Assembly (NCBI GenBank): GCA_016223205.1
Contig: JACRPM010000006.1
Span: 209,228-273,227, forward strand
DNA length: 64,000 bases
Direction of reading: 5' to 3'
Source of the DNA: Candidatus Saganbacteria bacterium
GTDB lineage: Bacteria; Margulisbacteria; WOR-1; XYC2-FULL-46-14; WPAF01
Below, one piece after another: positions 23,367-56,460 of this stretch. The first letter of the stretch is position 1. Each line of letters starts with the position of its first letter. A program made the position numbers and the translations under genes. Under the pieces are notes generated by a model. It saw only the letters and a list, made by a program, of their open reading frames with translations, had not been told where the DNA came from and searched no databases.

Positions 23367-23369
23367 GGG

Positions 23370-24404: not shown

Positions 24405-24420
24405 GATCCGGGAGGGAAAA

Positions 24421-25341: not shown

Positions 25342-26334
25342 TTGCTCACCGACCTCAAGTCCCTGAATTTGACCGAGCTTCAGGAGATCGTTCCCGGTTT
25401 TAAAGGCCGCGAGGTCTTTCGCTTTATCCACCGGCATTTAAAAGAAAAGATAAGCGATCTGACCTGCATTTCGCTTTCCGAACGAGAACAGTTGGCCGAA
25501 AAATATTTCATCTCCAATCTTGATATCCAAAAAACCTCAAACGAAAAAGAAGCCGGCAAAGTGGCCTTTAAGCTATCTGACGGCAATTTAGTGGAAACGG
25601 TAAGTTTGAAGGACAAAGAGAACCGCGTGACGTTGTGCGTTTCTTCGCAGGTAGGTTGTCCCGTCCAATGTCTCTTCTGCGCTACGGGGAAGATGGGATT
25701 TAAGCGAAACCTGACGGTCTCCGAGATCCTCTCACAGGTCTATCATTTTGCCAAAGGGGAAAAGATCTCCAATATCGTTTTTATGGGGATGGGGGAGCCC
25801 TTCTTGAACTATGAAAATGTTTTAGCCGCGGCCAGGATATTGAACCACCCGCTGGGGCAGAACATCGCCGCCCGCAAGATCACTATTTCGACGGTGGGCA
25901 TCATCTCGGGGATAAAGAAGCTGGCGGAGACCCCGGAGCAATTCCGCCTGGCCTGGTCGCTTATCGCGCCCAATGACGGCGCCCGGGGCGAACTGATACC
26001 GTCAAAATACAATGAGCCGATCGACAAGATAGTCGCCGCGCTTCGGGAGTATCAAAGGACCACCAGACGCAGAGTGACCCTTGAATATGTGGTCTTAAAG
26101 GACAAGAACGATTCAGAAAAGGACGCCGCTCAATTGGTAAAAATCGCCAAACAATTGGACAGCCATGTCAATTTGATCCCGTATAATCCGGTCAAGGGTT
26201 CATTTTATATGGAAGGGAATAAAGGGGCGCTCTTCTCGTATCTTAAGAAAGCCGGGGTCAACGTGACCATCCGCCAAAGCCGGGGAAGAAGCATATCAGC
26301 AGCTTGCGGGCAGTTGGCCATGCACCATGAATAG
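25342..26334 (+). CDS. rlmN: Radical SAM 23S rRNA (adenine2503-C2)-methyltransferase RlmN/Cfr family
   Basis: SSQVGCPVQCLFCATG (CxxxCxxC); MGMGEPFLN; C-terminal Cys pair; TTG start. Confidence 0.8.
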   Translation: MLTDLKSLNLTELQEIVPGFKGREVFRFIHRHLKEKISDLTCISLSEREQLAEKYFISNLDIQKTSNEKEAGKVAFKLSDGNLVETVSLKDKENRVTLCVSSQVGCPVQCLFCATGKMGFKRNLTVSEILSQVYHFAKGEKISNIVFMGMGEPFLNYENVLAAARILNHPLGQNIAARKITISTVGIISGIKKLAETPEQFRLAWSLIAPNDGARGELIPSKYNEPIDKIVAALREYQRTTRRRVTLEYVVLKDKNDSEKDAAQLVKIAKQLDSHVNLIPYNPVKGSFYMEGNKGALFSYLKKAGVNVTIRQSRGRSISAACGQLAMHHE

Positions 26335-26350
26335 GTGCATGGCTGGCGGG

Positions 26351-26881
26351 TCATTCCGCCGAATAAACAAAATCCATTATGGCTCGGAAGGGATTACCGG
26401 GAGCGTCTCCCAGTGGAGTAGAAAGCAATGCCGCAGAACTGATGCGGTGATCATTTCCGGTATCATCCGAAGTATTGTATGATAGATCAAGCCGCACGAT
26501 CGCACCTTGGGGTGGAATACCAATCATAGTGAGATGCCGAAAGGCACATCTTACCGCCGCTCTTATGGTTCTATCCGGAAAATCAGCCTTATAATATAAT
26601 TGATTGAGACCGCAATTAAAATTGATGGCAAGTGAATAAATCCCCGTTTCTAACATAGCTTGGCAAATGTGCCGATCTATTAAATGGGTCTGTTCCCGCC
26701 CCGCCGCTCCCATCATTCCGCTCTCAAAATCAAGATTTAATTTGGCGCCGTTGGTTTGCTGGGCTAGATTTCTAATCTGCCGTTCCAACTTATGCAGGCC
26801 GAACAATGGTCTGTTGCGCCCTATCCCTACCACAAGCATTCGTTGGCTAAAAAGTCTTATCCCAGTTCTTAATATCCCCAT
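26351..26881 (-). CDS. Hypothetical protein, tandem paralog A
   Basis: Shares DRTIRAAVRCAFRHLTMIGIPPQGAIVRLDLSYN block with upstream paralog B (DRILKATVRCVLRHLSMHGLPPEGDHISIVLSH); both start MGI. Confidence 0.45.
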   Translation of the reverse strand: MGILRTGIRLFSQRMLVVGIGRNRPLFGLHKLERQIRNLAQQTNGAKLNLDFESGMMGAAGREQTHLIDRHICQAMLETGIYSLAINFNCGLNQLYYKADFPDRTIRAAVRCAFRHLTMIGIPPQGAIVRLDLSYNTSDDTGNDHRISSAALLSTPLGDAPGNPFRAIMDFVYSAE

Positions 26882-27393
26882 GGCCCTCCTTCCTCTACCG
26901 CCGAAAATATTTTCACTATAGCCCCACGCGGGATACTGGGCGATCGGGCCAATAAAGCGAAAGCGTTGATTTGATTCAGATCGAGCAAGTTAAAGGTAAG
27001 ATGGGAAAGAACTATCGAAATATGATCTCCCTCGGGCGGCAAACCATGCATAGAAAGATGGCGCAATACGCACCTTACTGTTGCTTTTAATATCCGGTCC
27101 GGTATGACAGCACCGCTGCCCGGGGTCCCATTCATATCGATCAATATGGAATCGATCCCTTTTTTCCGCATTAATTCGCAAATTGTCCTATTTATTTCGA
27201 ATGGTTTTACTATCCCCCAAACTTTTGCCTCGCGATTTATGAAATTAAAGAGGAGATCGGCGCCGGGACATTGACCGGCCATCCGCTTAGACGCACGGGC
27301 TAATCCATATAATCCAGAAAGACGCTTTTTACCGGAAACGACCGACCCAACTCTTTTAAGAAATAGGGAACCCTGTGTCAATGTTATTCCCAT
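26869..27393 (-). CDS. Hypothetical protein, tandem paralog B (13-bp overlap with paralog A)
   Basis: See paralog A; co-oriented, overlapping, hence co-transcribed. Confidence 0.45.
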   Translation of the reverse strand: MGITLTQGSLFLKRVGSVVSGKKRLSGLYGLARASKRMAGQCPGADLLFNFINREAKVWGIVKPFEINRTICELMRKKGIDSILIDMNGTPGSGAVIPDRILKATVRCVLRHLSMHGLPPEGDHISIVLSHLTFNLLDLNQINAFALLARSPSIPRGAIVKIFSAVEEGGPWGY

Positions 27394-27425
27394 GATTCAC
27401 CTCACCACAATTATCTGTTTGCGCC

Positions 27426-27456
27426 TTAAAAAATTTCACACTATTTATGATATAAT
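27426..27456 (+). promoter_or_regulatory. Candidate sigma70-type extended -10 promoter (TGATATAAT) for the GH57 branching-enzyme gene; predicted TSS essentially at the ATG (leaderless or very short leader)
   Basis: tgatataat at 27448-27456; ATG at 27464; no SD between them; AT-rich upstream (ttaaaa 27426-31). Confidence 0.3.
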
Positions 27457-27463
27457 TTGTTAA

Positions 27464-29047
27464 ATGCAAAAAGGCTACCTCGCGCTGGTGCTCCACGCGC
27501 ACTTGCCTTATGTCCGCCATCCGGAACACGAGGATTTTCTGGAGGAGGACTGGTTCTTTGAGGCGGTGACCGAGACCTATATCCCCCTGCTCAACATGTT
27601 CGAAACCCTGGTGCGGGACGGGGTGGACTTCCGCCTCACCATGTCCGTTACCCCGACCCTGGGCGCCATGTTCACCGATGAGCTTTTGCAGAACCGCTAC
27701 CTCCATCATATAGAAAAATTGATCGAGCTTTCTTATAAAGAGATCGACCGCACCCGCTGGGAGCCGGCCTTTAACCACCTGGCCCGAATGTATAACCACC
27801 GCTTCAACCTGGCGCGGACGGCCTTTGTCGATACCTACGGCAAAAATCTGATCAACGGCTTTAAGAAATTCCAGGACATGGGGAAACTGGAGATCATCAC
27901 CTGCGGCGCGACACACGGTTTTCTTCCCTTAATGGAGATCTCCCGCGCCGCGGTCCGCGCCCAGGTAAAAGTGGCCTGTTCGCACTATGAGAAACTTTTT
28001 GGCAGGAGGCCGCGGGGCATCTGGCTGCCCGAGTGCGGCTTCCAGCCCGGAGACGACCAAATATTAAAAGAAGAAGGACTACGTTTCTTTCTGGTCGACA
28101 CCCACGGCATCCTCCACGGCTCGCCCCGCCCCAAGTTCGGCGTTTTCGCCCCGGTCTATACCAAAACCGGGGTGGCGGCTTTTGGTCGAGACATGGAAAG
28201 CAGTAAGGCGGTGTGGTCGGCGGTGGAGGGTTATCCCGGAGATTACAACTACCGCGAGTTCTACCGCGATATCGGCTTCGACCTCGATTACGATTATATC
28301 CGTCCCTACATCCATTGTGACGGCACCCGCATCAACACCGGGATCAAATATTTCAAGATCACCAGCCCGAACAATCACAAAGAGCCCTACGATCCGCACT
28401 GGGCCTGGGAAAAGGCCGCCGAACACGCCGGCAACTTTCTCTTTAACCGGCAAAAGCAGGCGGAGTTCCTCTCGGATTGGATGGGGCAGGATCCCGTCCT
28501 GGTCTCACCGTACGATGCCGAGCTTTTCGGACACTGGTGGTACGAAGGGCCGCAATTTTTGGAAGTGTTGCTGCGCAAGATCCATCACGACCAGGACACC
28601 ATTAAGACCGTCACTTTGATGGAATATCTCGAGCGGCATCCGCGCAACCAGGTGATCACGCCCTCGCTTTCTTCGTGGGGTTATAAAGGGTACGCCGAGG
28701 TGTGGCTCGAAGGCAGCAACGACTGGATCTACCGGCACCTGCACAAGGCCGCCGAGCGCATGGTGGAGCTGGCCGATCGCTTCCCCAACCGGAACGGCAA
28801 CTTAAGGCGGGCGCTCAACCAATGTGCACGGGAACTTTTGCTGGCGCAATCCTCGGACTGGGCCTTTATCATGAAGACCGGGACCATGGTGCCGTATGCG
28901 GTGAAACGCTTCAAGGACCACATCGAACGTTTTACCCGCCTGCACGATGCCATCCTCGGCAACCGGATTGACGAACCATATCTGGCGGATCTCGAAGGCA
29001 AGGATAATATTTTCCCGGAGATCGATTATATGGTGTATAAGTCATGA
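27464..29047 (+). CDS. GH57 1,4-alpha-glucan branching enzyme (Thermus/Thermococcus-type)
   Basis: N-terminal LALVLHAHLPYVRHPEHEDFLEEDWFFEAVTETYIPLL closely resembles characterised GH57 branching enzymes; 527 aa. Confidence 0.8.
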   Translation: MQKGYLALVLHAHLPYVRHPEHEDFLEEDWFFEAVTETYIPLLNMFETLVRDGVDFRLTMSVTPTLGAMFTDELLQNRYLHHIEKLIELSYKEIDRTRWEPAFNHLARMYNHRFNLARTAFVDTYGKNLINGFKKFQDMGKLEIITCGATHGFLPLMEISRAAVRAQVKVACSHYEKLFGRRPRGIWLPECGFQPGDDQILKEEGLRFFLVDTHGILHGSPRPKFGVFAPVYTKTGVAAFGRDMESSKAVWSAVEGYPGDYNYREFYRDIGFDLDYDYIRPYIHCDGTRINTGIKYFKITSPNNHKEPYDPHWAWEKAAEHAGNFLFNRQKQAEFLSDWMGQDPVLVSPYDAELFGHWWYEGPQFLEVLLRKIHHDQDTIKTVTLMEYLERHPRNQVITPSLSSWGYKGYAEVWLEGSNDWIYRHLHKAAERMVELADRFPNRNGNLRRALNQCARELLLAQSSDWAFIMKTGTMVPYAVKRFKDHIERFTRLHDAILGNRIDEPYLADLEGKDNIFPEIDYMVYKS

Positions 29048-31500
29048 AAGCGGTAGTTCTGGCGGGCGGATTGGGGACCCGTCTGCATCCTCTGACCATC
29101 AATGTCCCCAAGCCCATGGTGCCGGTGGCCAATCGTCCCTTGATGGAATACACCATCGAACTTTTAGCCAAGCACGGCTTTAAGGACATTGTCGTCCTGC
29201 TTTATCATCAACCCCATATCATCAAGTCGCATTTCGGCGACGGGAAAGATTTCGGGGTCAAGCTCACCTACATCGAAGCCCAGGAAAATTACGGAACCGC
29301 TGGTGCCGTAAAGTTCGCCGCGGGCGATTTTAAGGAACCTTTCCTGGTGATCAGCGCGGATCTGGTGACCAATTTTGACCTCAATAAGATAGTGGATTTC
29401 CATAAAGCCAAGAAGGCGGATCTCACCGTGGTGCTGACCCGGGTGGAAAATCCCCTGCCTTACGGTATCGTCATCACCCACAAGGACGGCCGCATCAAGC
29501 ACTTTTTGGAGAAGCCGACGGCGAGCGAAGTTTTCTCCGACACCATCAACACCGGCATTTACCTGGTAGATCCCCGCATCCTTGATCATATTCCCGCCGA
29601 GAAGGAATTCGATTTTTCTAACGATCTTTTCCCGCGGCTGCTCGAAGAAAAAGGGAAGCTTTACGGTTTTGTGACCGAGGGGTTGTGGCGGGACATCGGC
29701 AACCTCGAGGAATACGGAAGGGTGCAGGCGGAGATCTTACGGGATGTCCCTTCCATCGTTGAGAAAAGCGCCAAGGTGGCAAAATCGGCCCGCATCGAAG
29801 GCATGGGGATGATCGGGGAGAACGCGATCGTGGCTGACAACGCCACCCTTATCAACAGCGTAGTGGGCCCCAACTGCCGGATCGGGCGCGGCGCTTACTT
29901 GCGGGAATGCGTGATCTGGGAAAATACGAGCGTCGGCACCGAAGCGCGGCTGGAACGGTCCATCGTGGGGAACCGCTGCCAGATCGGAGACCGGGCTTAT
30001 CTTGAAGAATATTCGGTGATAGCCGATGAAGTGCGTATCGGCAAGGACGCGACACTTCGTCCGCACGTTAAGATCTGGCCGGGTAAGATCATCGAGGAGG
30101 GCTCCACCGTCTCGCGCAGTATGGTGCTCCGCGAACGCTTCCCCAAGACCATTTTCGGGCCTTTCGGGGTGACGGGGCTGATCAACATCGAGCTTACCCC
30201 GGAATTTGCCGCCACCCTGGGCGTATCTTACGGGGCTCTTTTGGGGCCGGGCTCGCTCATAACCGCCTCGCGCGATTCCCACAAGGCCTCGCGCATGATC
30301 TACCGCGCCCTGCTTTCGGGAGTGCTTTCGGCGGGGGTGAACGTCTCGGACCTCGAGATGAACGCCATCCCCGTGACCCGCTACGAGCTCAAGGCGCTCA
30401 AGAGCAAGGGCGGGTTCCACGTGCGCAAATCGCCGTACGACCCGGAAGTGATCGACATCAAGTTCTTCGGCGACGATGGCATGGACCTTTCATCGCTGAA
30501 CGAAAAAAGGATCGAACGTTTATTTTTCGGCGAGGATTTCAAGCGGCTCTGCGCCGAATGCGTGGGCGAACTTTCGTTCCCTTTCCACCGGGTGGCGGAG
30601 CAGTATAAAGAAGGCGTCCTCCATCATTTAAACCTCGATCTTATCCGCAGTAAAAAATGCAAGATCGTGATCGACTATGCTTACGGCTCGGCTTCCCAGC
30701 TTTTCCCCAATATTTTGGGAGAGTTGGGATGTGAAGTGGTAGCGCTCAATGCCCACATCGACGAGACCAAGATCACCAAGAACAAAGAGATGTTCGATCA
30801 TGCGCTCAAACAGCTCTCCTCGATCGTTAAATCACTCGAGGCGGACCTGGGCATCATGTTCGACACCGGGGCGGAGAAGATATTCCTCTGCGATGAGAAA
30901 GGCAATATCTTGAGCGGAGACGAGGCCCTGGGAGTGATCGCGGCTTTGATCTTCTCCACCCAAAAGAACGCTACCATCGCCGTGCCGGTGAGCGCCTCCG
31001 CTTCTCTTGAAAAAATAGCCAAACGGTACAACGGCCGCATTTTACGCACCAAGACCTCCTCACGGCACATGATGGAGGTGGCCACCCGTCCGGAAGTGAA
31101 GTTCGTGGGGGAAAGGGTGGGGGGCTATATCTTCCCGGAATTCCAGCCGCATTTTGACGCCATGTTCTCGGTCGTCAAACTGCTCGAGCTTTTGGACAAA
31201 AAGGACCGGGAGATTTCGGAGATCGAAGCGGAATTGCCGCCTTCGGGCGTGGTGAAGAAAGATATTTCCTGCCCGCCGGAGCTTAAGGGCCGCGTGGTGA
31301 GGACCCTGGCGGAGGAGCTTAAGGACGAAGAAGTGGAGCTTATCGACGGCATCAAGGTCTATCACGGCGAAAGTTGGGCGCTGGTATTGCCGGACCCGGT
31401 GCGACCGGTGATCGAACTTTTTGCCGAAGCCGAATCCGAAAAAGCCGCCCGCAAGATGCTTTCCGATTACACCAAGCGGATCGACGAGATAATCGGATGA
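29044..31500 (+). CDS. Bifunctional sugar-1-phosphate nucleotidyltransferase (N-terminal, with left-handed beta-helix) / phosphohexomutase (PGM/PMM, C-terminal), 818 aa
   Basis: MKAVVLAGGLGTRLHPLT...KPMVPV NTP-transferase motif; hexapeptide-repeat middle; C-terminal alpha-D-phosphohexomutase-like domains; ATGA overlap with glgA. Confidence 0.75.
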   Translation: MKAVVLAGGLGTRLHPLTINVPKPMVPVANRPLMEYTIELLAKHGFKDIVVLLYHQPHIIKSHFGDGKDFGVKLTYIEAQENYGTAGAVKFAAGDFKEPFLVISADLVTNFDLNKIVDFHKAKKADLTVVLTRVENPLPYGIVITHKDGRIKHFLEKPTASEVFSDTINTGIYLVDPRILDHIPAEKEFDFSNDLFPRLLEEKGKLYGFVTEGLWRDIGNLEEYGRVQAEILRDVPSIVEKSAKVAKSARIEGMGMIGENAIVADNATLINSVVGPNCRIGRGAYLRECVIWENTSVGTEARLERSIVGNRCQIGDRAYLEEYSVIADEVRIGKDATLRPHVKIWPGKIIEEGSTVSRSMVLRERFPKTIFGPFGVTGLINIELTPEFAATLGVSYGALLGPGSLITASRDSHKASRMIYRALLSGVLSAGVNVSDLEMNAIPVTRYELKALKSKGGFHVRKSPYDPEVIDIKFFGDDGMDLSSLNEKRIERLFFGEDFKRLCAECVGELSFPFHRVAEQYKEGVLHHLNLDLIRSKKCKIVIDYAYGSASQLFPNILGELGCEVVALNAHIDETKITKNKEMFDHALKQLSSIVKSLEADLGIMFDTGAEKIFLCDEKGNILSGDEALGVIAALIFSTQKNATIAVPVSASASLEKIAKRYNGRILRTKTSSRHMMEVATRPEVKFVGERVGGYIFPEFQPHFDAMFSVVKLLELLDKKDREISEIEAELPPSGVVKKDISCPPELKGRVVRTLAEELKDEEVELIDGIKVYHGESWALVLPDPVRPVIELFAEAESEKAARKMLSDYTKRIDEIIG

Positions 31501-32921
31501 AGATACTTTACGTTTCATCGGAAGTGGTGCCTTATGCCAAGACCGGAGGATTAGCGGACGTGGCGGGAGCGCTTCCCCAGGCGCTGTCTGCCCTGGGCCA
31601 CGAAGTAGTGGTGGTGATGCCCAAATACCGCATGGTGGATGAAAAGAAATTCGGCCTTGAAAAATTGAACGATGAGCTCTATCGCGCTAAAGGCAAAGTG
31701 ACCGTCTATTTTATCGCCAACGATAAGTATTTCGATAGGGAAGGGCTCTATCAGGAAAAAGGCGTCGATTATCCCGACAACTGCGAACGTTTCTCTTTTT
31801 TCTGCCGGAAAGTACTGGAGATACTGCCGAAGGTCGGCTTTTTTCCCGATATCGTCCATTGCAACGACTGGCAGACCGCGCTGATCATCGCCTATATCAA
31901 GAAGCTTGGTGAATGGCCGAAGACCGCCACGGTCTATACCGTCCATAACATGGGATACCTGGGCCTTTTCCCCAAAGAAAAGCTGGCCGCGACCGGCTTC
32001 GGCTGGGAAATGTACCTGCCGGAGAATTTGGAATTCTGGGGCAGCATCGCGCTGGCCAAGGCAGGCTTTGTCTTTGCCGACCTCATCAACACCGTTTCCC
32101 AGACCTATGCCGAGGAGATCCAAACCGATGAGATGGGATTCGGGTTGGCGGGGCTTTTGCGTTCGCGCTCCCAGGATGTTTCCGGCATCATCAACGGGAT
32201 CGATTATACCGTCTGGAATCCCGAGACCGACGCGGTGATCGCTCGCAAGTACGGGACCAAATCCATTCCCCTCAAATACGAGAACAAGAAGGCCCTGCAG
32301 AAAGCGAATAACCTTCCGGAAAAAGAAGATATTCCGCTCATCGGCATGATCACCCGTTTGGCCGACCAGAAGGGCTTCGATATCCTGGCGGGGGCGATGG
32401 AAAAGATCATGCATCTTAAATGCCAGATGGTGATATTGGGGACCGGGGAGCCGAAATATCACGAACTTTTACTGAACGAAAAGAAAAAGTATCCCCAGCA
32501 TATCGGGATCAACCTGGGCTTTAATGCCGCCCTGGCACAGCTCATCTACGCCGGGTCCGATCTGTTCCTGATGCCTTCCCATTACGAACCCTGCGGGTTG
32601 GGCCAGCTTATTTCATTCAAATACGGCGCCATCCCCATCGTCAGGAAAACCGGGGGACTGGCGGACACGGTGCACGATCTTAATCCCAAGACCGGCAAGG
32701 GGGACGGGTTCGTTTTCGAAGAATATTCCTCCGAAGCCTTGCTCAATGCCGTCAAGCGCGCGCTTACGGCTTATCGGAACAAAAAGGAATGGCTGAAGCT
32801 TATCGAAAAGGTGATGTGCTACGATTATTCCTGGAAGGTCTCGGCCCGCAAGTACGTTGAGCTTTATAACCGGGGCTTGACGAAGTTAAGTTTTATCCAG
32901 AAAAGCGGAAACCTGCTTTAG
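31497..32921 (+). CDS. glgA: Glycogen (starch) synthase
   Basis: MKILYVSSEVVPYAKTGGLADV N-terminal signature; start ATG 31497 overlaps previous stop (ATGA); longer ORF from 31374 rejected. Confidence 0.85.
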   Translation: MKILYVSSEVVPYAKTGGLADVAGALPQALSALGHEVVVVMPKYRMVDEKKFGLEKLNDELYRAKGKVTVYFIANDKYFDREGLYQEKGVDYPDNCERFSFFCRKVLEILPKVGFFPDIVHCNDWQTALIIAYIKKLGEWPKTATVYTVHNMGYLGLFPKEKLAATGFGWEMYLPENLEFWGSIALAKAGFVFADLINTVSQTYAEEIQTDEMGFGLAGLLRSRSQDVSGIINGIDYTVWNPETDAVIARKYGTKSIPLKYENKKALQKANNLPEKEDIPLIGMITRLADQKGFDILAGAMEKIMHLKCQMVILGTGEPKYHELLLNEKKKYPQHIGINLGFNAALAQLIYAGSDLFLMPSHYEPCGLGQLISFKYGAIPIVRKTGGLADTVHDLNPKTGKGDGFVFEEYSSEALLNAVKRALTAYRNKKEWLKLIEKVMCYDYSWKVSARKYVELYNRGLTKLSFIQKSGNLL

Positions 32922-44636: not shown

Positions 44637-45197
44637 ATGACAAACCTAAAGAAGATCGAAAAAGCGGTAAAAGAAATACTGATCGCCATCGGCGAAGACC
44701 CGAAGCGGGAAGGGCTCAAAGATACGCCTAAACGGGTAGCGAAGATGTACGCCGAGATCTTTTCGGGGCTCAAGACCGATCCCGCCAAAGTGATCACGCT
44801 CTTCAAACAGGCCGAACACGAAGAAATGGTGATGGTGAAGGACATCCCGTTCTATTCCGTTTGCGAGCACCATCTCATCCCCTTTATCGGCAAGGCCCAC
44901 GTGGTCTATATCCCCAAGGCCGGACGCGTTACCGGGCTTTCGAAATTGGTAAGGGTGATCGAAGGATTCGCCAAGCGGCCCCAGGTGCAGGAAAAACTCA
45001 CCACCCAGATCGCCGACACCTTAATGGCCCGCTTGCGGCCGCAAGGAGTTTTGGTTATAATCGAAGCCGAACATTTGTGCATGTCGATGCGGGGGGTGAA
45101 AAAACCCGGTTCCCTGACCGTTACCTCCGCGGTTAGAGGCGTGTTTGAAAAGAACGCTACCACCAGAATGGAGGCCCTGGAATTAATAAAAAGATAG
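44637..45197 (+). CDS. folE: GTP cyclohydrolase I
   Basis: [12 protein letters not shown] zinc-binding motif; 186 aa. Confidence 0.9.
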
Positions 45198-45283
45198 CGA
45201 TAATCCTGTTCGGTCTTTTTATTTTTGCTAACATTTCCTCGGCGGAAGATGTTACCACCGCGATCGATCCCACCCGCCTGGCC

Positions 45284-47014
45284 ATGGGTGCGCGGCCGTT
45301 GGCGTTGGGGCGGGCTTTCCTGGGGGAATCCGACGACGTGACCTCCATCTTTTCCAATCCCGCCGCTTTGGGCACCCTAAAAAATTGGCAAGCAACATCT
45401 CTGACGGGAAAATTCCTGAACGAAGTTGAATATGTCACCGGCGCTTATGCTTTCCCCACGGCCTACGGGACTTTCGGCATCGGCTATGTGGGCAGCGGCC
45501 TGGGAATTACCGCGCCGATCGCCACCCTTGAGGTGATAGACGGGGAATACCGCATCGTTCCATCATCCACCGAAGCCAGCTTTAATTATGTAACCCGCAC
45601 GGTTTTGCTTTCCTGGGCTAAAAAGCTCACCGCAAATATTTACGGCGCGGCCAATCTTAAGGTGCTTTTCACTTCGCTTACGGGATATCAAACCAGCAAC
45701 GCCGATTCCGCCAGCGGGCAACAGTTGGACCTTTCGCTTTTTTACAATCCCGAACGTTTCTATACCCTGGGATTGAACTGGCAAAACGTCCTGCCCGCAA
45801 GTTGGGGGGGGTTAACCTACGGCGACGGCTACCGCGAACCCCTGGGCCAGCTGGTAAAAGTTGGGACTAAGGTCTCACTGTTGGGAGATCGCTTAGCCCT
45901 GCGCGAACATAAGCAGTTCAAGCTCAATTTACTGTTGGACGCCGATGTTTCGTATGCCAGCCGGGTGATCCCCACCTTATTCCATACCGGATTGGAATTT
46001 TTCCCCACCCCCATATTGGCCCTGCGGGCGGGCGTGGACCAGGATTTTGTGGGGCCGGGGCAGATCGCCAATAATCTTACCGCCGGATTAGGATTTACCA
46101 CAGGGGGGGTCAAGTTCGATTACGCTTACCATCAATATAGCGAGCTCGCCAGCAATACCACCCACTATTTCTCCCTGGGATTCTCTCCGGAGTTAAGATA
46201 TCCACGGCCCTTTACCGTGGAGCAGCCCCCCAACCGTTTTATTTCATACGAAGATAAAATGCTGGTCGTCGGGAGAGTGGAAGACCTCGCCAATGTCCGG
46301 GTCTTAAAGATCGATAATGTCGAGGTAATGCCCGAAAGCGGCGGGCGCTTCGATTTTTATGCGCCGCTCAACCTTAAGCTGAACCTGATCACCCTGGAGG
46401 CCTTTGATAAGAACGGGAGGCTTTTAGGCAAACAGGAACTCAAAGGCCTGCGGCTTTTGACTTTTCGGGACCTCGATCCGGTGTATTTCGCCAAACTGCC
46501 CATAGAATATCTGGCGACGCTGGGGATCGTGACCGGCTATCCGGACGGGGCCTTCGAGCCGGGCGGCAAGGTCACCCGCGCCGAGATGTCGGCCCTGCTT
46601 ATCAGGGCCCAGGGAACACCCGAAGGAGAATCCTCTTCTGATTTTATTGATCTCAATAGAGATTACTGGGCTTACCAATACGTCAGCCGGGCGGCGGAGG
46701 AGGGGATCGTCAAAGGGTATCCCGATCAGACCTTCCGTCCCCAGGGCCAAATAACCCGCGCCGAAGGCGTGGCAATGATAGTAAGATATGCTAGAATACC
46801 GCACGGTCGGGTATATGAGCTTCCTTATAGCGATGTCCATGGAAGGCATTGGGCGATAGGGGAGATCACGGCGGCCAAGGAGATGGGTTTGCTTAAATAT
46901 CTGGGCGATGGTCCTTTCGAACCCGACCAGCCCTTGACCCGCGGAGAGGTAGCCGAGATGTTGTATCAAACCGATTATGTTAAACAGGAGATCAAAAAGT
47001 TATGGGGGGATTAA
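45284..47014 (+). CDS. Secreted/outer-membrane beta-barrel-like protein with three C-terminal SLH domains. True N-terminus probably upstream: an in-frame signal-peptide-like [19 protein letters not shown] at 45188-45244 without a canonical start.
   Basis: N-terminal ~300 aa with alternating amphipathic beta-strand pattern ending ...THYFSLGF. Three SLH repeats: YFAKLPIEYLATLGIVTGYPDGAFEPGGKVTRAEMSALL, YWAYQYVSRAAEEGIVKGYPDQTFRPQGQITRAEGVAMIV, HWAIGEITAAKEMGLLKYLGDGPFEPDQPLTRGEVAEML. Confidence 0.65.
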   Translation: MGARPLALGRAFLGESDDVTSIFSNPAALGTLKNWQATSLTGKFLNEVEYVTGAYAFPTAYGTFGIGYVGSGLGITAPIATLEVIDGEYRIVPSSTEASFNYVTRTVLLSWAKKLTANIYGAANLKVLFTSLTGYQTSNADSASGQQLDLSLFYNPERFYTLGLNWQNVLPASWGGLTYGDGYREPLGQLVKVGTKVSLLGDRLALREHKQFKLNLLLDADVSYASRVIPTLFHTGLEFFPTPILALRAGVDQDFVGPGQIANNLTAGLGFTTGGVKFDYAYHQYSELASNTTHYFSLGFSPELRYPRPFTVEQPPNRFISYEDKMLVVGRVEDLANVRVLKIDNVEVMPESGGRFDFYAPLNLKLNLITLEAFDKNGRLLGKQELKGLRLLTFRDLDPVYFAKLPIEYLATLGIVTGYPDGAFEPGGKVTRAEMSALLIRAQGTPEGESSSDFIDLNRDYWAYQYVSRAAEEGIVKGYPDQTFRPQGQITRAEGVAMIVRYARIPHGRVYELPYSDVHGRHWAIGEITAAKEMGLLKYLGDGPFEPDQPLTRGEVAEMLYQTDYVKQEIKKLWGD

Positions 47015-47015
47015 G

Positions 47016-50000
47016 ATGAAAAAGTTTATCTGGGTTTTGGTTATTGTATCTTGGTCATTGGTGATTGTCCTGCCAAAGGCGGGAGAGGCGGTATTGGCAA
47101 GGGGAATGACGGCTGCGGGTGTGACCATAAACAATACCCAGGGGGTTGCCGCCCAGCAGTATCCCAATATTATTGCGGACGGCGCCGGCAACACCATCGT
47201 GGCCTGGCATGATTATAAGTCGGGCATCGCCGCGCTCTATGCTCAAAGTTATGATGGCTCCGGAAATGCCCGCTGGTCTCCAGCCGCGGGAGTTCCCATC
47301 TGCACGGTAACCAATTTTTTTGGTACGATGATAGCCCTCGACAGCAACGCGCTGGCTTTCCATATGGTATCTGATGGGTCCGGAGGTGCGATCATCGCCT
47401 GGAACGACTACCGAACCGACGGCACGACTTCTCATGTTTATGCTCAGAGGATCAACAGCAGCGGCGTCGTACAGTGGACAGCGAACGGGAAACTAGTTTG
47501 CGATGCCGCGAATGGTCAGAGCTTGAATTCCATGGATATCGACGGCTCCGGCGGGGCCCTGCTGGCTTGGACCGACCTGCGCAATTTTGTCAACGGTTCC
47601 GACATCTATGTTCAAAGAATAGGAGGCAGCGACGGAGCGTCCCAATGGACGATCAACGGAGTGCAGGTTTATGATAATACAGCGCTGGGCGTGGGCGCCA
47701 ACCGTCCATCTATTATCAACAATGGTGGAGGGGCGATCGTTACCTGGGATGACAATCGGGCCAGCCCGTCTTATTATGGGATCTACGCGCAAAAGCTCAA
47801 CGCTAATGGGGGAGCAGTGGCGTGGGCCGCCAACGGAGTTGCGGTTCAGGTTAACGACACCGGCAGCGCCGTCAATCCCAAAATAGTTACAGACAACTCC
47901 GGGGGCGCCGTGATCGCCTGGTGGGATGAGCGTGTTAATCCGGGAGCTTCCCAATATGATGTTTTTTCGCAAAGGATCAACGCTTCGGGAGAAAAGGTTT
48001 GGACAACCCAGGGTGTCACCCTTTGCCTTCAATCCGACTATTCCGATAATAGCGTGGATATGGCCATAGTAACTGATACCGTAAATGGGGCAATTGTTTC
48101 CTGGCCGGACATGCGCAACGTGGGCGGAGGATACCGGATCTACGCGCAAAGAGTGGTGGCCAATGGAGGCGTCTCTTGGACTGCGGATGGCGTTGCGGTT
48201 AATACACTGCTCAACAACGATTCCAGTACTCGTCCCCGTATGGTAGCCGACGGTTCGGGGGGCGCCTATATAGCCACCTCCAATTATGGTTCGGGTGGCA
48301 CCCTCGATATCAGAGTCCACCGTATAAATTCAAGCGGGGAAACACCGGTGGGTTGGGCCGACGGAAAAGCGGTCAATGATACAGCTACGGTAGATGAGAG
48401 GAATCCGCGAGTCGCCTATGACACCATCAACGGCGTGGTGGTCGTGGTTTGGATGAATCAGGCGAATGATACCCGGGGCGATATTTGGGGACAGGCCCTA
48501 TCTTCGGGTGGAGCCTACGGCTGGGGCACTACCACCGGCAAAGAATTGATAGCCACCACCGGCGCCGCGACCCAAAGATATCCGGCGGTGGCGAGCGATG
48601 GAGCGGGGGGTGGTGTAACGGTCTGGGAAGACCAGCGTTCCGTCGATTATTACCAGATCTATTCCCAAAGGTTCAACAGCTCCGGCTCGGTCTTATGGGC
48701 GGCGGACGGGGTCCGTCTGGATAATACAGTACAGGATAACCTGCGTCCCTCGGTCTGCCGCACCTCCGACGGATATTACATAATGGCGTGGACCTCCGGT
48801 TCGACCATCTATGTGCAAAAAGTGAATTCTGATGGAACGGCGCAATGGGCGGCGGGCGGAGTAGCGGTTGCCAGTACTTTCGGTTCCGGATTTTATTATC
48901 CGGTGGTGGCTTCCGATGGCGCGGGCGGGGTGTTACTGGCTTATTCTGTTGGGGTGTCGGGAGCGGTCACCAAAACCAGCGCTAAACTGGGTGATCGGTT
49001 ATGGGCTTCTGCGTACTTGTCCGATATTTCTGAAGGGGAACTGCCTGATCTAAATGGGATTCTTTATGCAAAAGGCGATGGCGGGGGCGGGGGAGGGGGC
49101 GCAGGCACATTTCGTGTTTATTACAAACGTATCGCATCAGACGGCAGCATCGTAACCCCTTATGGAGGCGCAGTCCAGAATGCCACGTCTCTAGGTGTTT
49201 TGGCCACAACTTATCACGATGCGGTCAATGGGGAGATACAGCTCTGGCCGTCCATTGCAAAAGTGGATTCAACCAATGTTGTGATCACCTGGGATGACCG
49301 GCGGACGGTTGGTTCCGCCGCCTGGTATATTTATGCTCAAAAAGTGCTGATAGCCGACGGCATGAGGCAATGGACCGATGACGCCGTGGCGGTTACCTCG
49401 CCCGGTGGAACCGTAGCTACCTATTATCCCTGGATCGGGAGCAACGGGACCGATGGGACGGCGGTGGTAGCCTGGATGCAGAGCGCCACCAACGCGGCTG
49501 GATATAATTATAATATCCTGGCGAATAAATTGAGCAGCGCCGGGGCTTTGAACTGGTCTTCGGGGATAAATGTAGCGGCGGACGGGACACTCGATGAGAT
49601 CCGGCCCAAAGTTGCGGTCGATTCCTCCGGCAATTCCTTCTTCGTTTGGCAGGAAGGAACCTGGACCAGCGCCGATACACTGAATGCTTCAACCCTGCAT
49701 CCCAACGCCCCCACCATGAGCAACGGCGCCATCTACTCGCAACTGGTTGATTCTTCGGGTGCGCTTTCGGGCGCAAAATTCCAGGTCTCATCCTCGGCTG
49801 TCAATTTAAATTACGAAGCTCCGGACGTTACTACCACCAGCACCGCCGGAACCGATATCGTGGTTTATGACGCGGATATCTATGCCCAATCGGTAACTGG
49901 GGTGTCGGTCGCGGTAACTCCCACCGCGCCTACCGGTTTTTCCGGCACGGCTCAATCTTCCAGTTCCATACTATGGAGTTGGACGGACAATGCCAACAAC

Positions 50001-51104
50001 GAGACCGGATTCCGGCTGGTTAATTCCCAGACCAATTCGATCGTGGCGACCATCGCCACGGCCAACACCACATCATATTCCGAGACCGGCCTTTCGCCCA
50101 ATACCGCTTATCAGAGGACGATAGCGGCTTATACCGATGCCAACAGTTCGACTCCCACAGCGGTCACGGTCTACACTCTGGCCTCGATCCCGGACGAAAT
50201 GGCGGCCACAGCGGCCGAGACCTCCCTGGCCATAACCTGGGCGGTTGGGGACGGGACAACCTATAAAATGGAGAGAGCGGCCGCATCAACCGGCCCCTGG
50301 ACCACGCTTTCCTCGACCCTCACCTCCAAATCTTATAGCGATACCGGATTGACTGCCGGAACGACCTATTGGTACCGCTGTTCCTCGGCCAATGCCGATG
50401 GGGTCTGGTCGGCGGCCAGCGAACCTTATAGTTTTACTACCAGCACTTCGGGGGTCACCAGGCAATCGCCCACCATTGGCGGCACCAAGTCGTCGGGAAC
50501 CGGCCTGGCCATTGCCAGCAACGACTATATGTCCTCCACCGGAGATCTGAAGCTCAATGTCTCGGACCTTAATACCGACGGCCGGATCACTTCGGTTGTG
50601 GTACAGGTCTTCAACAGTTCAGGAGTAGAGGTTAGAAGGGTGGAAAGTTCGGAAGTATTAGCCTCTTATTCTGTAGCGGCTTTGCCGGCGGGCACTTATA
50701 GGGTACTGATCACCGCAACCAGCATCTATGGCACCACTTCGGTCAAGGAATTGACCGGCCTGAAGGTGTCCGACAAATTGCAGGTTACCAGCGCGCTGGT
50801 GGCTTATCCCACCGCGGTCTTGCAGAGCTCGATTTTGGCGCAGGGACACACCGCGGTGCAGATGGCTTACCAGCTAAGCAAGAACGGAAACGTCAGCATG
50901 GTCATCTACAACACCGCCGGACAGGTGGTCTATCGGGGCGATTATACTCCGGGCTCGAACGGCGGCAGCGCCGGGCCCAATGTGGCGAGCTGGGACGGCT
51001 ACACCGTGGCGGGAGTAAAGGCGGCGAGAGGGTTATATATCGTGCAGTTGATCGACCGGGACGGAAAGGCGCTTCTAGGCAAGGTGGTCGTGCCGGTCCA
51101 CTGA
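47016..51104 (+). CDS. Very large secreted repeat protein (1362 aa): signal peptide, about 15 tandem ~60-aa propeller-blade-like repeats, FN3-like domains, C-terminal FlgD-Ig / T9SS-type sorting-domain-like tail
   Basis: Start ATG 47016 with SD aaacaggag, 2 bp after previous stop. Repeats carry D-G-S-G-G-A-h-h-A-W-x-D and h-Y-A/S-Q-R/K-h-x-x-x-G-x-x-x-W motifs. FN3 at ...SILWSWTDNANNETGFRL.... C-terminus ...ASWDGYTVAGVKAARGLYIVQLIDRDGKALLGKVVV. Confidence 0.75.
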   Translation: MKKFIWVLVIVSWSLVIVLPKAGEAVLARGMTAAGVTINNTQGVAAQQYPNIIADGAGNTIVAWHDYKSGIAALYAQSYDGSGNARWSPAAGVPICTVTNFFGTMIALDSNALAFHMVSDGSGGAIIAWNDYRTDGTTSHVYAQRINSSGVVQWTANGKLVCDAANGQSLNSMDIDGSGGALLAWTDLRNFVNGSDIYVQRIGGSDGASQWTINGVQVYDNTALGVGANRPSIINNGGGAIVTWDDNRASPSYYGIYAQKLNANGGAVAWAANGVAVQVNDTGSAVNPKIVTDNSGGAVIAWWDERVNPGASQYDVFSQRINASGEKVWTTQGVTLCLQSDYSDNSVDMAIVTDTVNGAIVSWPDMRNVGGGYRIYAQRVVANGGVSWTADGVAVNTLLNNDSSTRPRMVADGSGGAYIATSNYGSGGTLDIRVHRINSSGETPVGWADGKAVNDTATVDERNPRVAYDTINGVVVVVWMNQANDTRGDIWGQALSSGGAYGWGTTTGKELIATTGAATQRYPAVASDGAGGGVTVWEDQRSVDYYQIYSQRFNSSGSVLWAADGVRLDNTVQDNLRPSVCRTSDGYYIMAWTSGSTIYVQKVNSDGTAQWAAGGVAVASTFGSGFYYPVVASDGAGGVLLAYSVGVSGAVTKTSAKLGDRLWASAYLSDISEGELPDLNGILYAKGDGGGGGGGAGTFRVYYKRIASDGSIVTPYGGAVQNATSLGVLATTYHDAVNGEIQLWPSIAKVDSTNVVITWDDRRTVGSAAWYIYAQKVLIADGMRQWTDDAVAVTSPGGTVATYYPWIGSNGTDGTAVVAWMQSATNAAGYNYNILANKLSSAGALNWSSGINVAADGTLDEIRPKVAVDSSGNSFFVWQEGTWTSADTLNASTLHPNAPTMSNGAIYSQLVDSSGALSGAKFQVSSSAVNLNYEAPDVTTTSTAGTDIVVYDADIYAQSVTGVSVAVTPTAPTGFSGTAQSSSSILWSWTDNANNETGFRLVNSQTNSIVATIATANTTSYSETGLSPNTAYQRTIAAYTDANSSTPTAVTVYTLASIPDEMAATAAETSLAITWAVGDGTTYKMERAAASTGPWTTLSSTLTSKSYSDTGLTAGTTYWYRCSSANADGVWSAASEPYSFTTSTSGVTRQSPTIGGTKSSGTGLAIASNDYMSSTGDLKLNVSDLNTDGRITSVVVQVFNSSGVEVRRVESSEVLASYSVAALPAGTYRVLITATSIYGTTSVKELTGLKVSDKLQVTSALVAYPTAVLQSSILAQGHTAVQMAYQLSKNGNVSMVIYNTAGQVVYRGDYTPGSNGGSAGPNVASWDGYTVAGVKAARGLYIVQLIDRDGKALLGKVVVPVH

Positions 51105-53753
51105 TCAGGCGGTTTCGGCCCAGCTGGGCCCGGCTCCGATCGTGATCTTAACGGGGATGGAAAGAGGTAAAGCTTTTTCCATCCCTTCTTTTACTATCTG
51201 CTTAATGTTTTCTACTGCTTCTTGGGGAACTTCAAATACCAGTTCATCGTGAACCTGCAAGATCAATTTTGAATTTTGACTTTTTACTTTTGAATTTATA
51301 TTGATCATGGCTACTTTGATCATATCCGCCGCCGTTCCTTGCACGGGCGTGTTGATGGCGGTCCTTTCTGCAAATGATCTCAATCCGTAGTTAGGCGAGT
51401 TAATATCGGGCAGGGGCCTTTTCCTGCCCAAAAGCGTGGTCACGAAGCCGTTCTCCTTGGCTTCCTTGATGGTCTTATCGATAAAGGCCTTGACCCCGGC
51501 ATATTTTATAAAATAATCATCTATGAATTTGGCGGCTTCGGTCTTTTTGATCTTAAGCTGTTTGGCCAGGCCGAAATCCGATAGCCCGTAGATCACGCCG
51601 AAATTAACCGTTTTGGCCGCCGCGCGCGTTATACCCAACTCATCGGCCACGGCCTGGTGGATATCCACATCCTTCTCAAAGGCCTCTTTCATCCTGCTAT
51701 CGCCGGATAAGTGGGCCAAAATGCGCAGTTCGATCTGTGAATAATCCGCCGCCACGATCACGGAACCCGCTTTTTGCGGGACGAAAGCGGATCTTATCAA
51801 TTTGCCCAATTCCCCGCGGATGGGTATGTTCTGCATGTTGGGATTCGAAGATGAGAGCCGCCCGGTCGAGGTTATGGTCTGGTTGAAGCTGGCATGGATG
51901 CGGCCGGTTTTGGGATTAATTAAAGTGGGGAGGACCTCGATGTAGGTGGACATAAGCTTGCTAAGCTGGCGGTATGAGGCCAGCTTTTGCGCGATCTCGA
52001 ACTTTTCGGATAATTCCTCAAGCACGCTGGAGTCGGTCGAGGGCCCGGTTTTGGTCCGCTTTAAAACGGGTATTTTGAGCTTTTCGAACAGGATATAGCC
52101 CAGCTGTTTGGGCGAATTCAGATTAAAGGTTTCTCCTGCAATGGCGAAGATGTTTCGCTCAAGATCATTCATTTGCGTTTTTAAGGTCTTGGCCAGGTCA
52201 TTTAACTTGCCGCAATCGACATATACTCCGGTCATCTCCAGATCGATCAGGATCGGCAAAAGGGGCATTTCCACCTTATAAAAGAGGTCGCTTAATCCTT
52301 CTTCTTTAAGCTTTTCCTTAAAGATCTCATATAGACCAAAGGTGACCTCGGCATCAGTGCAGGCGTATTGGGTTGCGACGTCGAGAGGTATGTCGGCAAA
52401 ACAGCCCTCTTCTTCCATGATCTCGTTCAATTTAAGCATCTCGTGGCGCCCCAGGTAATGCGCGCCGGTTTTTTTGAGCCCGTACCCGCCGGAAATGGGG
52501 TCAAGCAGGTAAGCGGCTACCATGGTGTCGAAATGGGGTGGGGCGACTTCGATCCCGTTATTTTTCAGGACTTCAATATCGTACTTGAGGTTATGGCCGA
52601 TCTTGAGCTTATCTGATGCGAAAATGGAATGTAGGGGCGGCCCTTGTGGCCGCCCGAGATCGCGGGCGGCGAAGGGGACATAATAGGCCTCACCGCTGGC
52701 CACGGAAAACGAAATGCCCACTATCTTGGCTTCAAACACGTTCAGTGAGGTGGTTTCGCAGTCAAAGGCGAAAGTGTCGACGGCTTGGAGTTTCTCAATT
52801 AGGGCTTTTAGCTTTTCCGGGGTATCGACGCAGTGGAAATCGAACTTGCTTAATTCTTCTCTTTTCTTCTCAACCACCGACCCGCGGGTGAACCCCGCGG
52901 TTTGCTCCCGGTATTTCTTGACCAGCGAATCAAATTCCATCTTCTCAAAGAAAGCCACCGCTTTGTCCCAGTCGGTCTTATATTCCTGAAGGTCGGCTTC
53001 GATGGGCACATCAAGCACAATGGTCGCCAGCCGGCGGCTCATGAGGGCCAGGTCCTTTTCGTCTGTCAGCTTGGCTTTCAGCTTGGGTTTTTTTATGTCG
53101 CCGGTATGCTCAAGCAGATTATCCAGGGTTTTATATTCTTTCAGCAGTTCGGTGGCGGTCTTTTCTCCGATCCCCGGGACTCCGGGGATATTATCGGAAG
53201 CGTCTCCTTTTAGGGCTTTAAAGTCGATCAGCTGATCGGGATCCAATCCGTATCTCTCTTTCACCGCTTTTTCATCGTAGAGCACCGTGTCGCTGATGCC
53301 TTTCCTTAAGGTCAAAACCTTGATCTGTTTATTGACGAGCTGGAGGGGATCGAGGTCGCCGGAGACGATCTCAACATTCATCCCCTTATCTGCTGATTGC
53401 TTAGCCAGCGTGCCGATCACGTCATCCGCTTCAAATCCGACTTTCTCAAAAATGGGGATAGAAAAGGCCTCGGCAGCTTCCCGCACGTAAGGCAGCTGTT
53501 CGATGAGGGTAGGTGGGGCCTTGTCGCGGGTGGCTTTGTATTCTTTATATTCCTTATGGCGGAAAGTTGGCTCCTTGAGATCGAAAGCGATGGCGATATA
53601 ATCCGGTTTTTCTTCGAGCAATTTAAGCAGCATGGTGGTAAAGCCGTAAATGGCATTGCTAACCAGACCGGTTGAGGTCTTCATGGTATCCGGCAGGGCA
53701 TAAAAGGCCCGGTAGGCCAGGGAATTGCCGTCGATCAGCATTACTTTCTTCAC
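51105..53753 (-). CDS. polA: DNA polymerase I (5'-3' exonuclease, 3'-5' exonuclease and polymerase domains)
   Basis: Pol motifs DYSQIELR (A), RRAAKTVNFGVIYG (B), VHDEL (C); Exo I FAFDCETTS; N-terminal 5' nuclease GxxxxDD region. Confidence 0.9.
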   Translation of the reverse strand: MKKVMLIDGNSLAYRAFYALPDTMKTSTGLVSNAIYGFTTMLLKLLEEKPDYIAIAFDLKEPTFRHKEYKEYKATRDKAPPTLIEQLPYVREAAEAFSIPIFEKVGFEADDVIGTLAKQSADKGMNVEIVSGDLDPLQLVNKQIKVLTLRKGISDTVLYDEKAVKERYGLDPDQLIDFKALKGDASDNIPGVPGIGEKTATELLKEYKTLDNLLEHTGDIKKPKLKAKLTDEKDLALMSRRLATIVLDVPIEADLQEYKTDWDKAVAFFEKMEFDSLVKKYREQTAGFTRGSVVEKKREELSKFDFHCVDTPEKLKALIEKLQAVDTFAFDCETTSLNVFEAKIVGISFSVASGEAYYVPFAARDLGRPQGPPLHSIFASDKLKIGHNLKYDIEVLKNNGIEVAPPHFDTMVAAYLLDPISGGYGLKKTGAHYLGRHEMLKLNEIMEEEGCFADIPLDVATQYACTDAEVTFGLYEIFKEKLKEEGLSDLFYKVEMPLLPILIDLEMTGVYVDCGKLNDLAKTLKTQMNDLERNIFAIAGETFNLNSPKQLGYILFEKLKIPVLKRTKTGPSTDSSVLEELSEKFEIAQKLASYRQLSKLMSTYIEVLPTLINPKTGRIHASFNQTITSTGRLSSSNPNMQNIPIRGELGKLIRSAFVPQKAGSVIVAADYSQIELRILAHLSGDSRMKEAFEKDVDIHQAVADELGITRAAAKTVNFGVIYGLSDFGLAKQLKIKKTEAAKFIDDYFIKYAGVKAFIDKTIKEAKENGFVTTLLGRKRPLPDINSPNYGLRSFAERTAINTPVQGTAADMIKVAMININSKVKSQNSKLILQVHDELVFEVPQEAVENIKQIVKEGMEKALPLSIPVKITIGAGPSWAETA

Positions 53754-56421: not shown

Positions 56422-56460
56422 AATAAATAATTTTATCAGGTTTTATGCTAGAATGCAAGC

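Follow-up and report, generated by a model that had tools for sequence, protein, structure and literature searches.

In the window, the whole 64,000-nucleotide stretch of DNA from Candidatus Saganbacteria (Margulisiibacteriota) analyzed here, two adjacent genes on the forward strand encode a PorV-like outer-membrane barrel fused to S-layer homology (SLH) domains and, immediately downstream, a 1362-amino-acid (aa) protein, referred to as the cargo, that ends in a C-terminal domain (CTD) resembling those of type IX secretion (T9SS). The cargo corresponds to NCBI hypothetical protein HZC35_04650 of Candidatus Saganbacteria, an entry that sits on a 300,778-bp contig. Domain matches were obtained with Pfam and NCBIfam at gathering or curated cutoffs, and a hidden Markov model (HMM) of the cargo repeats was built from the cargo protein itself and iterated (self-HMM). 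Structures were AlphaFold 2 (AF2) models, and structural matches were derived from Foldseek comparison to the PDB. The features of the two genes are as follows.

45182..47014, forward strand: gene for the PorV-like barrel / immunoglobulin (Ig)-like / three-SLH protein, 610 aa if the start is the ATT at 45182
45257..46204, forward strand: outer-membrane barrel of the PorV family with 14 strands and, at its N-terminus, a short helical segment forming a hatch (NF033709, AF2, Foldseek, hhalign)
46211..46453, forward strand: Ig-like beta-sandwich linker, Glucodextran_B-like in paralogues (AF2 strands at residues 343-423)
46493..47008, forward strand: three SLH domains with motifs TRAE, TRAE and TRGE (PF00395, 123 bits over three stretches)
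47016..51104, forward strand: cargo gene, 1362-aa protein (database entry 100% identical)
47016..47090, forward strand: Sec signal peptide MKKFIWVLVIVSWSLVIVLPKAGEA, without a lipobox cysteine (read from the translation; putative cleavage site)
47169..49904, forward strand: 14-15 beta-propeller blades of ~57 aa, DGxGGAxxxW.D.R....IYAQR...G...W (self-HMM, family consensus, AF2)
49926..50453, forward strand: two fibronectin type III (FN3) domains (PF00041 and FN3-like matches)
50463..50798, forward strand: extra Ig-like domain, kept in orthologues ('mid' HMM 120-164 bits in all orthologues)
50799..51101, forward strand: C-terminal FlgD_ig / T9SS type-A-like domain (FlgD_ig, TIGR04183, alignment with other barrel-linked CTDs)

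The identity of the upstream protein was established by structure and profile comparison. The AF2 model (predicted local distance difference test, pLDDT, 91.7) contained a helical segment, 14 long strands, the Ig-like sandwich, and three SLH domains, and its top PDB match was PorV (6H3I_F, E 3.2e-12, template modeling (TM) score 0.66), ahead of TodX and FadL. The PorV_fam model NF033709 was matched almost in full (positions 12-325 of 326) by the barrel, with a score of 77.6 bits and E 1.3e-21, and 16 of 70 barrel-family members reached approximately the cutoff of this model (best E 1.9e-35). Furthermore, a profile of barrel-only relatives (A8) had PorV as its sole PDB match (E 4.7e-29) and aligned to the window barrel family (A3) in hhalign with 100% probability (E 1.3e-57). 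Since A8 matches PorV and aligns to the window family, homology is established, and the window barrel is a PorV homologue, albeit a borderline member by curated threshold. No PorP_SprF match was detected on the window barrel with Pfam or NCBIfam, and NCBI names some barrel paralogues PorV/PorQ family protein. PF09136 is precomputed on many of these paralogues, and the Ig-like linker gave a weak PDB match to glucodextranase (1UG9). The SLH profile matched the SLH domains of Sap (3PYW) at E 4.5e-23, and the triplet superposed on the SLH domains of Sap and SpaA that bind secondary cell-wall polymer (SCWP) with a TM score of ~0.8. The triplet presumably anchors the protein, from the periplasmic side, to SCWP or the cell wall.

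Public gene calls start the barrel gene at ATG 45284, without a signal peptide, yielding 576 aa at NCBI and 577 aa in an 88%-identical relative. The in-frame stretch preceding this ATG encodes a signal peptide, contains no ATG, GTG, or TTG, and shows coding conservation in the same relative (L001). A GGAGG is located at 45170-45174, 7 nucleotides (nt) before ATT 45182, and distant barrel orthologues begin with canonical signal peptides. Based upon the conserved signal-peptide stretch, the absence of usual start codons from it, the GGAGG spacing, and the orthologue starts, the gene appears to begin at the non-canonical ATT 45182 and to overlap the end of folE (stop 45195-45197). As a consequence, public records contain a shortened version of this gene, owing to its apparent ATT start.

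The cargo translation begins MKKFIWVLV... and ends ...GLYIVQLIDRDGKALLGKVVVPVH. Its ATG at 47016 follows the TAA of the barrel gene (47012-47014) with a 1-nt gap, and a G-run at 47004-47009 could be its Shine-Dalgarno sequence. Blade starts were placed by the self-HMM at aa 52, 117, 173, 233, 290, 351, 409, 467, 525, 580, 631, 747, 810, 866, and 938, with a unit length of ~55-58 aa. Ten of the units individually reached E values between 1e-18 and 1e-27, much better than chance would give. Unit 11 (aa 631) is interrupted by a glycine-rich insertion of 45 aa, and the final units of the array are degenerate. The AF2 model of aa 36-965 (mean pLDDT 83.8) was all-beta with four strands per unit, and the blades probably form two propellers. 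Foldseek matches of this model were generic single or tandem 7-bladed propellers (GH74, CylK, lectins) with nothing specific among them, and sequence searches of the repeat region matched no solved structure. With respect to catalogued repeats, no curated repeat model matched the window cargo, including TIGR04275 ('beta-propeller repeat protein', cutoff 85 bits), for which no match was found at E<=0.1, and cargo orthologues scored 20-43 bits. More than 2600 cargo homologues share a very regular blade consensus, however, and two of these, P0009 and P0007, scored 139.6 and 129.9 bits with TIGR04275. Proteins of the P0009/P0007 type are directly homologous to the cargo (phmmer E ~1e-180 to 1e-260). 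Because these regular family members pass the TIGR04275 cutoff, the cargo repeat is classified, by homology, as a diverged form of this catalogued type.

Behind the propeller region, PF00041 matched at aa 971-1049 (30.2 bits, above the cutoff of 25) and a second FN3-like module was located at approximately aa 1060-1146 (FN3-like matches at aa 1069-1145). FN3 was present in 11 of 11 orthologues of the cargo, and a profile of the FN3 region matched the FN3 domains of titin and chitinase. Within the adjoining Ig-like domain, PF18962 (Por_Secre_tail) scored 18.9 bits at aa 1180-1236, below its threshold of 27. The terminal domain itself belongs to FlgD_ig (PF13860, 30.3 bits, cutoff 27, aa 1275-1344) and matched TIGR04183 at aa 1285-1359 with 23.2 bits (cutoff 23). 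The type-B CTD model CHU_C (18.5 bits) fell short of its cutoff of 27. Among 11 full-length cargo orthologues, FlgD_ig was detected in eight and TIGR04183 in five. The window CTD retains WDG...RGLYIV...LGKVVV despite a degenerate PNP motif, and alignment with other barrel-linked cargoes of the phylum revealed the full set YPNPFxP...IYD..G...WDG.D..G...G.Y...AKGK..V.K; sister cargoes scored 34.2 and 24.5 bits with TIGR04183 and 38 bits with FlgD_ig. The best solved match of a Margulisiibacteriota CTD profile was the CTD of PorU (6ZA2 residues 1066-1155, E 1.6e-6), and FlgD structures 3C12 and 3OSV were matched at ~E 2e-6 to 3e-6. By these matches the CTD is predicted to be of the type expected for a PorV-family partner.

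A previous description of this DNA, made from the sequence alone (the sequence-only reading), had proposed approximately 15 blades of a ~60-aa repeat, FN3 modules, and a FlgD-Ig/T9SS-like C-terminus. The blades and FN3 modules were recovered as described, and the C-terminus was recovered marginally here and more strongly in sister cargoes. The same description had given the distance between the two genes as 2 bp, which is corrected to 1 nt, and had recognized no family for the repeat, a statement that no longer holds since regular members pass TIGR04275, though the window cargo does not.

In relatives, the pair was found at 80%, 43%, and 31-36% identity with a gap of 0-31 nt. The 80%-identity pair occupies the same fhs-folE-pair-polA context as in the window, while the 31-36%-identity pair lies in a quite different one (smpB-x-x-pair-NIL/Fer4). 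The contig scan with the barrel family was dominated by the SLH motif and yielded nine full-length loci. A CTD HMM built from A6 was used in place of a broader earlier version that had picked up propeller repeats. In the Margulisiibacteriota loci examined, 10 of approximately 20 distinct barrel genes directly abut a gene ending in a CTD. The passengers of these barrel-linked CTD genes are unrelated, comprising the propeller protein, TIG/Big_5 arrays, purple-acid-phosphatase-like metallophosphoesterases, CBM11, and a 347-aa protein. A propeller-family member of the same phylum without a CTD (P0113) has no adjoining barrel gene, and neither has the out-of-phylum homologue P0009 (locus L095), which carries a Por_Secre_tail.

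The linkage was also recovered starting from the CTD. A profile made from the barrel-linked CTDs retrieved many proteins of ~109 aa that consist of a signal peptide joined directly to a CTD and are named by NCBI 'T9SS type A sorting domain-containing protein [Candidatus Margulisiibacteriota]'. In locus L097 such a bare-CTD gene (7408-7737) shares its last 4 nt with the gene for a PorV homologue of 336 aa that is a barrel only (7734-8744). This mini-CTD family alone was used as the query for a scan of metagenome contigs, so that loci were picked by CTD similarity only. A barrel gene followed directly downstream of the CTD gene in 10 of 10 mini-CTD loci that could be evaluated (13 of 13 with truncated loci included) and in 31 of 62 evaluable loci with other CTD genes; in these CTD-selected loci a barrel was upstream in none, and none of the barrels carried SLH. 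The mini pair was found in 14 Margulisiibacteriota loci (L097 and L098-L110), always between an alr-like/sepF/proC/pfkB/relA block and rpsB-tsf-polA, with the alr-like gene divergent from it. The window holds the same block, with flanking proteins 45-80% identical and only 39 nt (56422-56460) at the mini-pair site, and its SLH-barrel/cargo pair lies on the other side of polA from this empty site. Linkage thus follows the CTD and not a particular passenger, and the conserved core is the CTD together with a PorV-family barrel, to which passengers and wall anchors are optional additions.

Named members of the combined barrel and SLH family all originated from Margulisiibacteriota, Saganbacteria, or WOR-1. 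The barrel domain alone yielded 1830 cluster representatives at E<=1e-3, including barrel-only proteins and one LysM-fused paralogue. This paralogue, P0375 (871 aa, Candidatus Margulisiibacteriota), carries the annotation of a peptidoglycan-binding LysM protein. Wall anchors on this type of barrel therefore vary, with SLH in the window, LysM in P0375, and none in P0264.

Several loci contained further arrangements of these genes. In one lineage with the smpB context, seen in L006 (10001-18254) and likewise in L007, L009, and L010, a tandem cargo duplication (1364 and 1373 aa) lies behind a single barrel-SLH gene, and the L006 contig also bears an SLH protein with a weak PorP_SprF match (P0229, L006 1-1461). 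In L011 (1-9836), large secreted proteins and barrels alternate, and the order is a 1706-aa beta-helix/FN3 protein with CTD, a 347-aa FlgD_ig protein, barrel-SLH, a 929-aa Peptidase_S74 protein (fiber chaperone), and barrel-SLH. Among the more distant metagenome contigs (L112-L177), many CTD proteins of 1300-1785 aa are each followed by a PorV homologue of 300-430 aa. CTD-barrel gene pairs may be widespread outside Margulisiibacteriota, and some of these loci may derive from organisms with a full T9SS.

Taken together, a barrel and CTD surface-display module in a diderm outside the Bacteroidota is well supported, and the two window genes probably form a cognate outer-membrane display pair in which the CTD docks on its own barrel and the barrel is tied to the wall. 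Both proteins carry signal peptides and would be exported by Sec, after which the PorV-family barrel of the upstream protein, with its 14 strands, would insert in the outer membrane. The Ig-like and three-SLH tail of this protein would remain in the periplasm, bound to peptidoglycan-associated SCWP and pinning the barrel to the wall. The cargo would be a double-propeller protein on an FN3 stalk, its CTD acting as a retained docking domain for its own barrel and not as a disposable signal, and the barrel would thereby connect the surface protein with the cell wall, functionally akin to PorP-PorE-PG1035. We infer SLH-SCWP binding in this scheme in line with the working of SLH tethers in diderm Terrabacteria, this lineage among them, and CTD-barrel binding, surface exposure, and CTD retention on the grounds of the PorU/PorZ and type-B precedents and of the CTD profile, which best matches the CTD of PorU. 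In the first precedent, from Bacteroidota, the CTDs of PorU and PorZ remain uncleaved, PorV and PorQ retain these proteins at the surface, and PorQ-PorZ assembles without PorU or PorV (PMC10947112). In the second, proteins with a type-B CTD do not leave the cognate PorP/SprF barrels encoded alongside, and PorP also binds the peptidoglycan-associated PorE (PMC9143113, PMC12618676). Cognate shuttles are, furthermore, genetically linked to their cargo (PMC12618676). The sequence-only reading had already placed a PorV/FadL-like barrel with SLH domains upstream and suggested a cognate display pair. The barrel was corroborated by PorV as first structural match and by the 123-bit SLH score, and the suggestion of a cognate pair gained support from PorV homology, from the general adjacency of CTD and barrel genes, and from conservation of the pair across the clade in different neighborhoods. 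An S-layer-associated adhesin operon, the other option raised at that time, is compatible with a display module and is not a rival to it.

The window pair resembles several known systems without coinciding with any. PorZ is a double-propeller protein with a CTD. PorQ-PorZ and PorV-PorU of P. gingivalis likewise combine a PorV/PorQ-family barrel with an uncleaved C-terminal beta-sandwich partner, an arrangement predicted here from genes. Unlike these, the present pair belongs to Margulisiibacteriota (Terrabacteria), its genes are adjacent and probably translationally coupled, and its barrel bears an Ig-like domain and three SLH domains. The TIGR04275-type propellers showed no specific similarity to those of PorZ, and 5M11 was not among the top structural matches. 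SprB-SprF and PG1035-PorP-PorE share the principle of one barrel per adjacent cargo, the cargo staying barrel-bound on the surface and PorE tying the complex to peptidoglycan in P. gingivalis (PMC9143113, PMC12618676). The known order is usually cargo and then barrel, whereas the window clade has the barrel first. In contrast to these type-B systems, the CTD here is type-A/FlgD_ig-like, the barrel matches PorV/PorQ models (only paralogue P0229 has a weak PF11751 match), and wall binding is fused to the barrel with no separate PorE. The OmpM/Slp/SlpA tethers of diderm Terrabacteria, which join an outer-membrane beta-barrel to periplasmic SLH and so connect outer membrane and wall, provide a parallel for the wall anchor, and there are reports of such tethers in Saganbacteria and Margulisbacteria (10.1101/2021.05.31.446380; PMC10628300). 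OmpM has an N-terminal SLH and a porin-type barrel, whereas the present protein starts with the barrel and continues through an Ig-like domain to the three SLH domains; its barrel has the 14 strands of the PorV/FadL type and is genetically coupled to a CTD partner. TIGR04275 (beta_prop_Msarc) proteins of other, mostly uncultured phyla have the same ~57-aa blade and many end in FlgD_ig/Por_Secre_tail, but they have no adjoining barrel gene (P0009 in L095) and no FN3/Ig stalk. What is new is that the proposed CTD anchoring of the PorV/PorQ type is genetically hard-wired and SLH-fused outside the Bacteroidota.

A number of observations weigh against a cognate display pair. The window barrel falls under the curated PorV_fam cutoff (77.6 versus 90 bits), so membership by score is lacking. 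The T9SS-model scores of the window cargo are marginal, with TIGR04183 right at its cutoff and no PF18962 match on the terminal domain, and the PNP motif is lost, AYPTAV replacing YPNPF. Approximately half of the barrel paralogues have no adjoining detectable CTD gene, e.g. L012 and L013 (ytxH-barrel-argS) and also L096, from which it follows that the barrel family also has cargo-independent roles. Barrel and CTD distances correlated with r 0.78 overall but r 0.30 (p 0.056) between non-orthologous groups, and the distance correlation therefore says nothing on specificity. Finally, a Pfam and NCBIfam search of the 64-kb window and of related loci totaling ~400 kb detected no T9SS core gene (SprA-, PorU-, or PorK/L/M/N-like) and no cargo translocon; this search was not genome-wide and is weak evidence on the genomes. 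Two candidates for SprA were rejected. The 1990-aa protein at 1812-7784 (forward strand) is alpha-helical/coiled-coil without a family match, and the 2198-aa neighbor in L013 is a beta-helix surface protein. The former also has a poly-proline stretch, hydrophobic segments, and a recurring L..AK..LRK.V.EI motif, and matched nothing in Pfam or NCBIfam.

A canonical T9SS could be encoded elsewhere in the genome, in which case a SprA/Sov translocon would export the cargo, the barrel would be its PorV shuttle, a PorU-like sortase would cleave the CTD and place the cargo onto glycolipid, and the SLH fusion would be incidental. Homology of barrel and CTD to T9SS PorV and type-A CTDs, the NCBI names given in Margulisiibacteriota to both families, and the strong TIGR04183 domains of out-of-phylum cargo homologues are consistent with such a system, but it is considered unlikely. 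Apart from the lack of core genes in the loci searched, reviews confine T9SS to the Bacteroidota or the Fibrobacterota-Chlorobiota-Bacteroidota (FCB) superphylum (PMC11205867, PMC11611037), a literature search found no paper linking Margulisbacteria or Saganbacteria to T9SS or PorV to S-layer homology, and many barrels each tied to their own cargo, together with passenger-less CTDs paired with a barrel, are a misfit for a single shuttle and a cleaved signal. The same negative search for core genes, and a phylum outside the known T9SS range, would agree with a T9SS-independent module in which the PorV-like barrel, alone or with the beta-barrel assembly machinery (BAM), both moves and holds its linked partner as an analogue of Slam/type XI secretion (T11SS) or two-partner systems, in which a dedicated barrel recognizes the cargo encoded beside it by way of a C-terminal beta domain. 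Tight one-to-one gene linkage with probable translational coupling and the bare CTD and barrel pair kept beside rpsB-tsf in 14 loci point in this direction. PorV only receives cargo from SprA (6H3I), however, and PorV and FadL-type 14-strand barrels are not known as protein translocators; given also a 1362-aa cargo with large folded domains, translocation by the barrel is judged improbable.

The remaining alternatives question the interaction or its location. If the genes were co-expressed without their products interacting, the barrel-SLH protein would be a general tether or FadL-like channel analogous to OmpM, and the downstream protein an unrelated S-layer protein or adhesin. Stand-alone barrel paralogues in housekeeping contexts, the expectation of SLH tethers in this lineage (10.1101/2021.05.31.446380), and the low between-group mirror-tree correlation would all fit. 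Adjacency, however, tracks the CTD and not the passenger and holds for bare CTDs and for barrels without SLH, and binding between these two families, CTD and barrel, is known from T9SS (PMC10947112, PMC9143113), making mere co-expression a poor candidate. A wholly periplasmic arrangement, in which the cargo never crosses the outer membrane and its CTD sits on the periplasmic face or hatch of the barrel to form a sub-membrane scaffold with the SLH domains, would explain why no translocon was identified in the loci searched and would suit the topology of the AF2 model, which puts both barrel termini and the SLH domains in the periplasm. It is nonetheless highly improbable, as homologous CTDs bind PorV-family barrels at the cell surface (PMC10947112) and the modules that accompany sister barrels as passengers, among them adhesin-like TIG/Big arrays, CBM11, phosphoesterases, and FN3, are typically extracellular. 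The cognate pair anchored at the surface is accordingly retained as the favored reading. Beyond it, one may entertain, tentatively and with more doubt than conviction, that CTD and PorV-like barrel constitute a self-sufficient display unit without SprA/PorKLMN, with the bare-CTD/barrel pair by rpsB-tsf as its minimal form. The shuttle and anchor half would then be independent and possibly older, and would have been coupled later by the Bacteroidota to a motor-driven translocon.

These findings are relevant to current views of T9SS, in which PorV-type barrels and CTD tags are treated as parts of a Bacteroidota/FCB machine; the same parts are here hard-wired in Margulisiibacteriota, a phylum sister to Cyanobacteria. 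This raises the question of whether these genomes hold a type IX translocon or whether the pair works without one. The passengers range from nothing to 2200-aa proteins and provide a natural set of matched CTD/barrel pairs for CTD-barrel recognition. Furthermore, the pair suggests a way in which uncultured bacteria related to Cyanobacteria construct a surface layer that is connected with the wall across the outer membrane.

The neighbors of the pair are housekeeping genes, with fhs and folE upstream on the same strand and polA downstream and convergent. The remainder of the window gave no further match to the barrel, CTD, or repeat models. A scan for promoters and terminators was uninformative except for the following feature.

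51153..51186, forward strand: terminator-like hairpin with a 14-bp stem and T-rich tail, 50 nt past the cargo stop and inside the 3' end of convergent polA (consensus scan only)

This hairpin may terminate a fhs-folE-barrel-cargo transcript, although it is weak evidence because the total of such sites was not above shuffled expectation. Elsewhere in the window, positions 19068-32921 contain a dense glycogen/alpha-glucan cluster encoding three GH57 proteins (one a 4-alpha-glucanotransferase and one a branching enzyme), a GalT-like protein, a radical SAM protein, a starch synthase, a protein with DUF4912 and Glucodextran_B (24421-25341), and a fused NTP-transferase/phosphoglucomutase. On the reverse strand, 14292-15680 encodes a 462-aa ThyX with two Thy1 matches, apparently a flavin-dependent thymidylate synthase that has undergone duplication or fusion.

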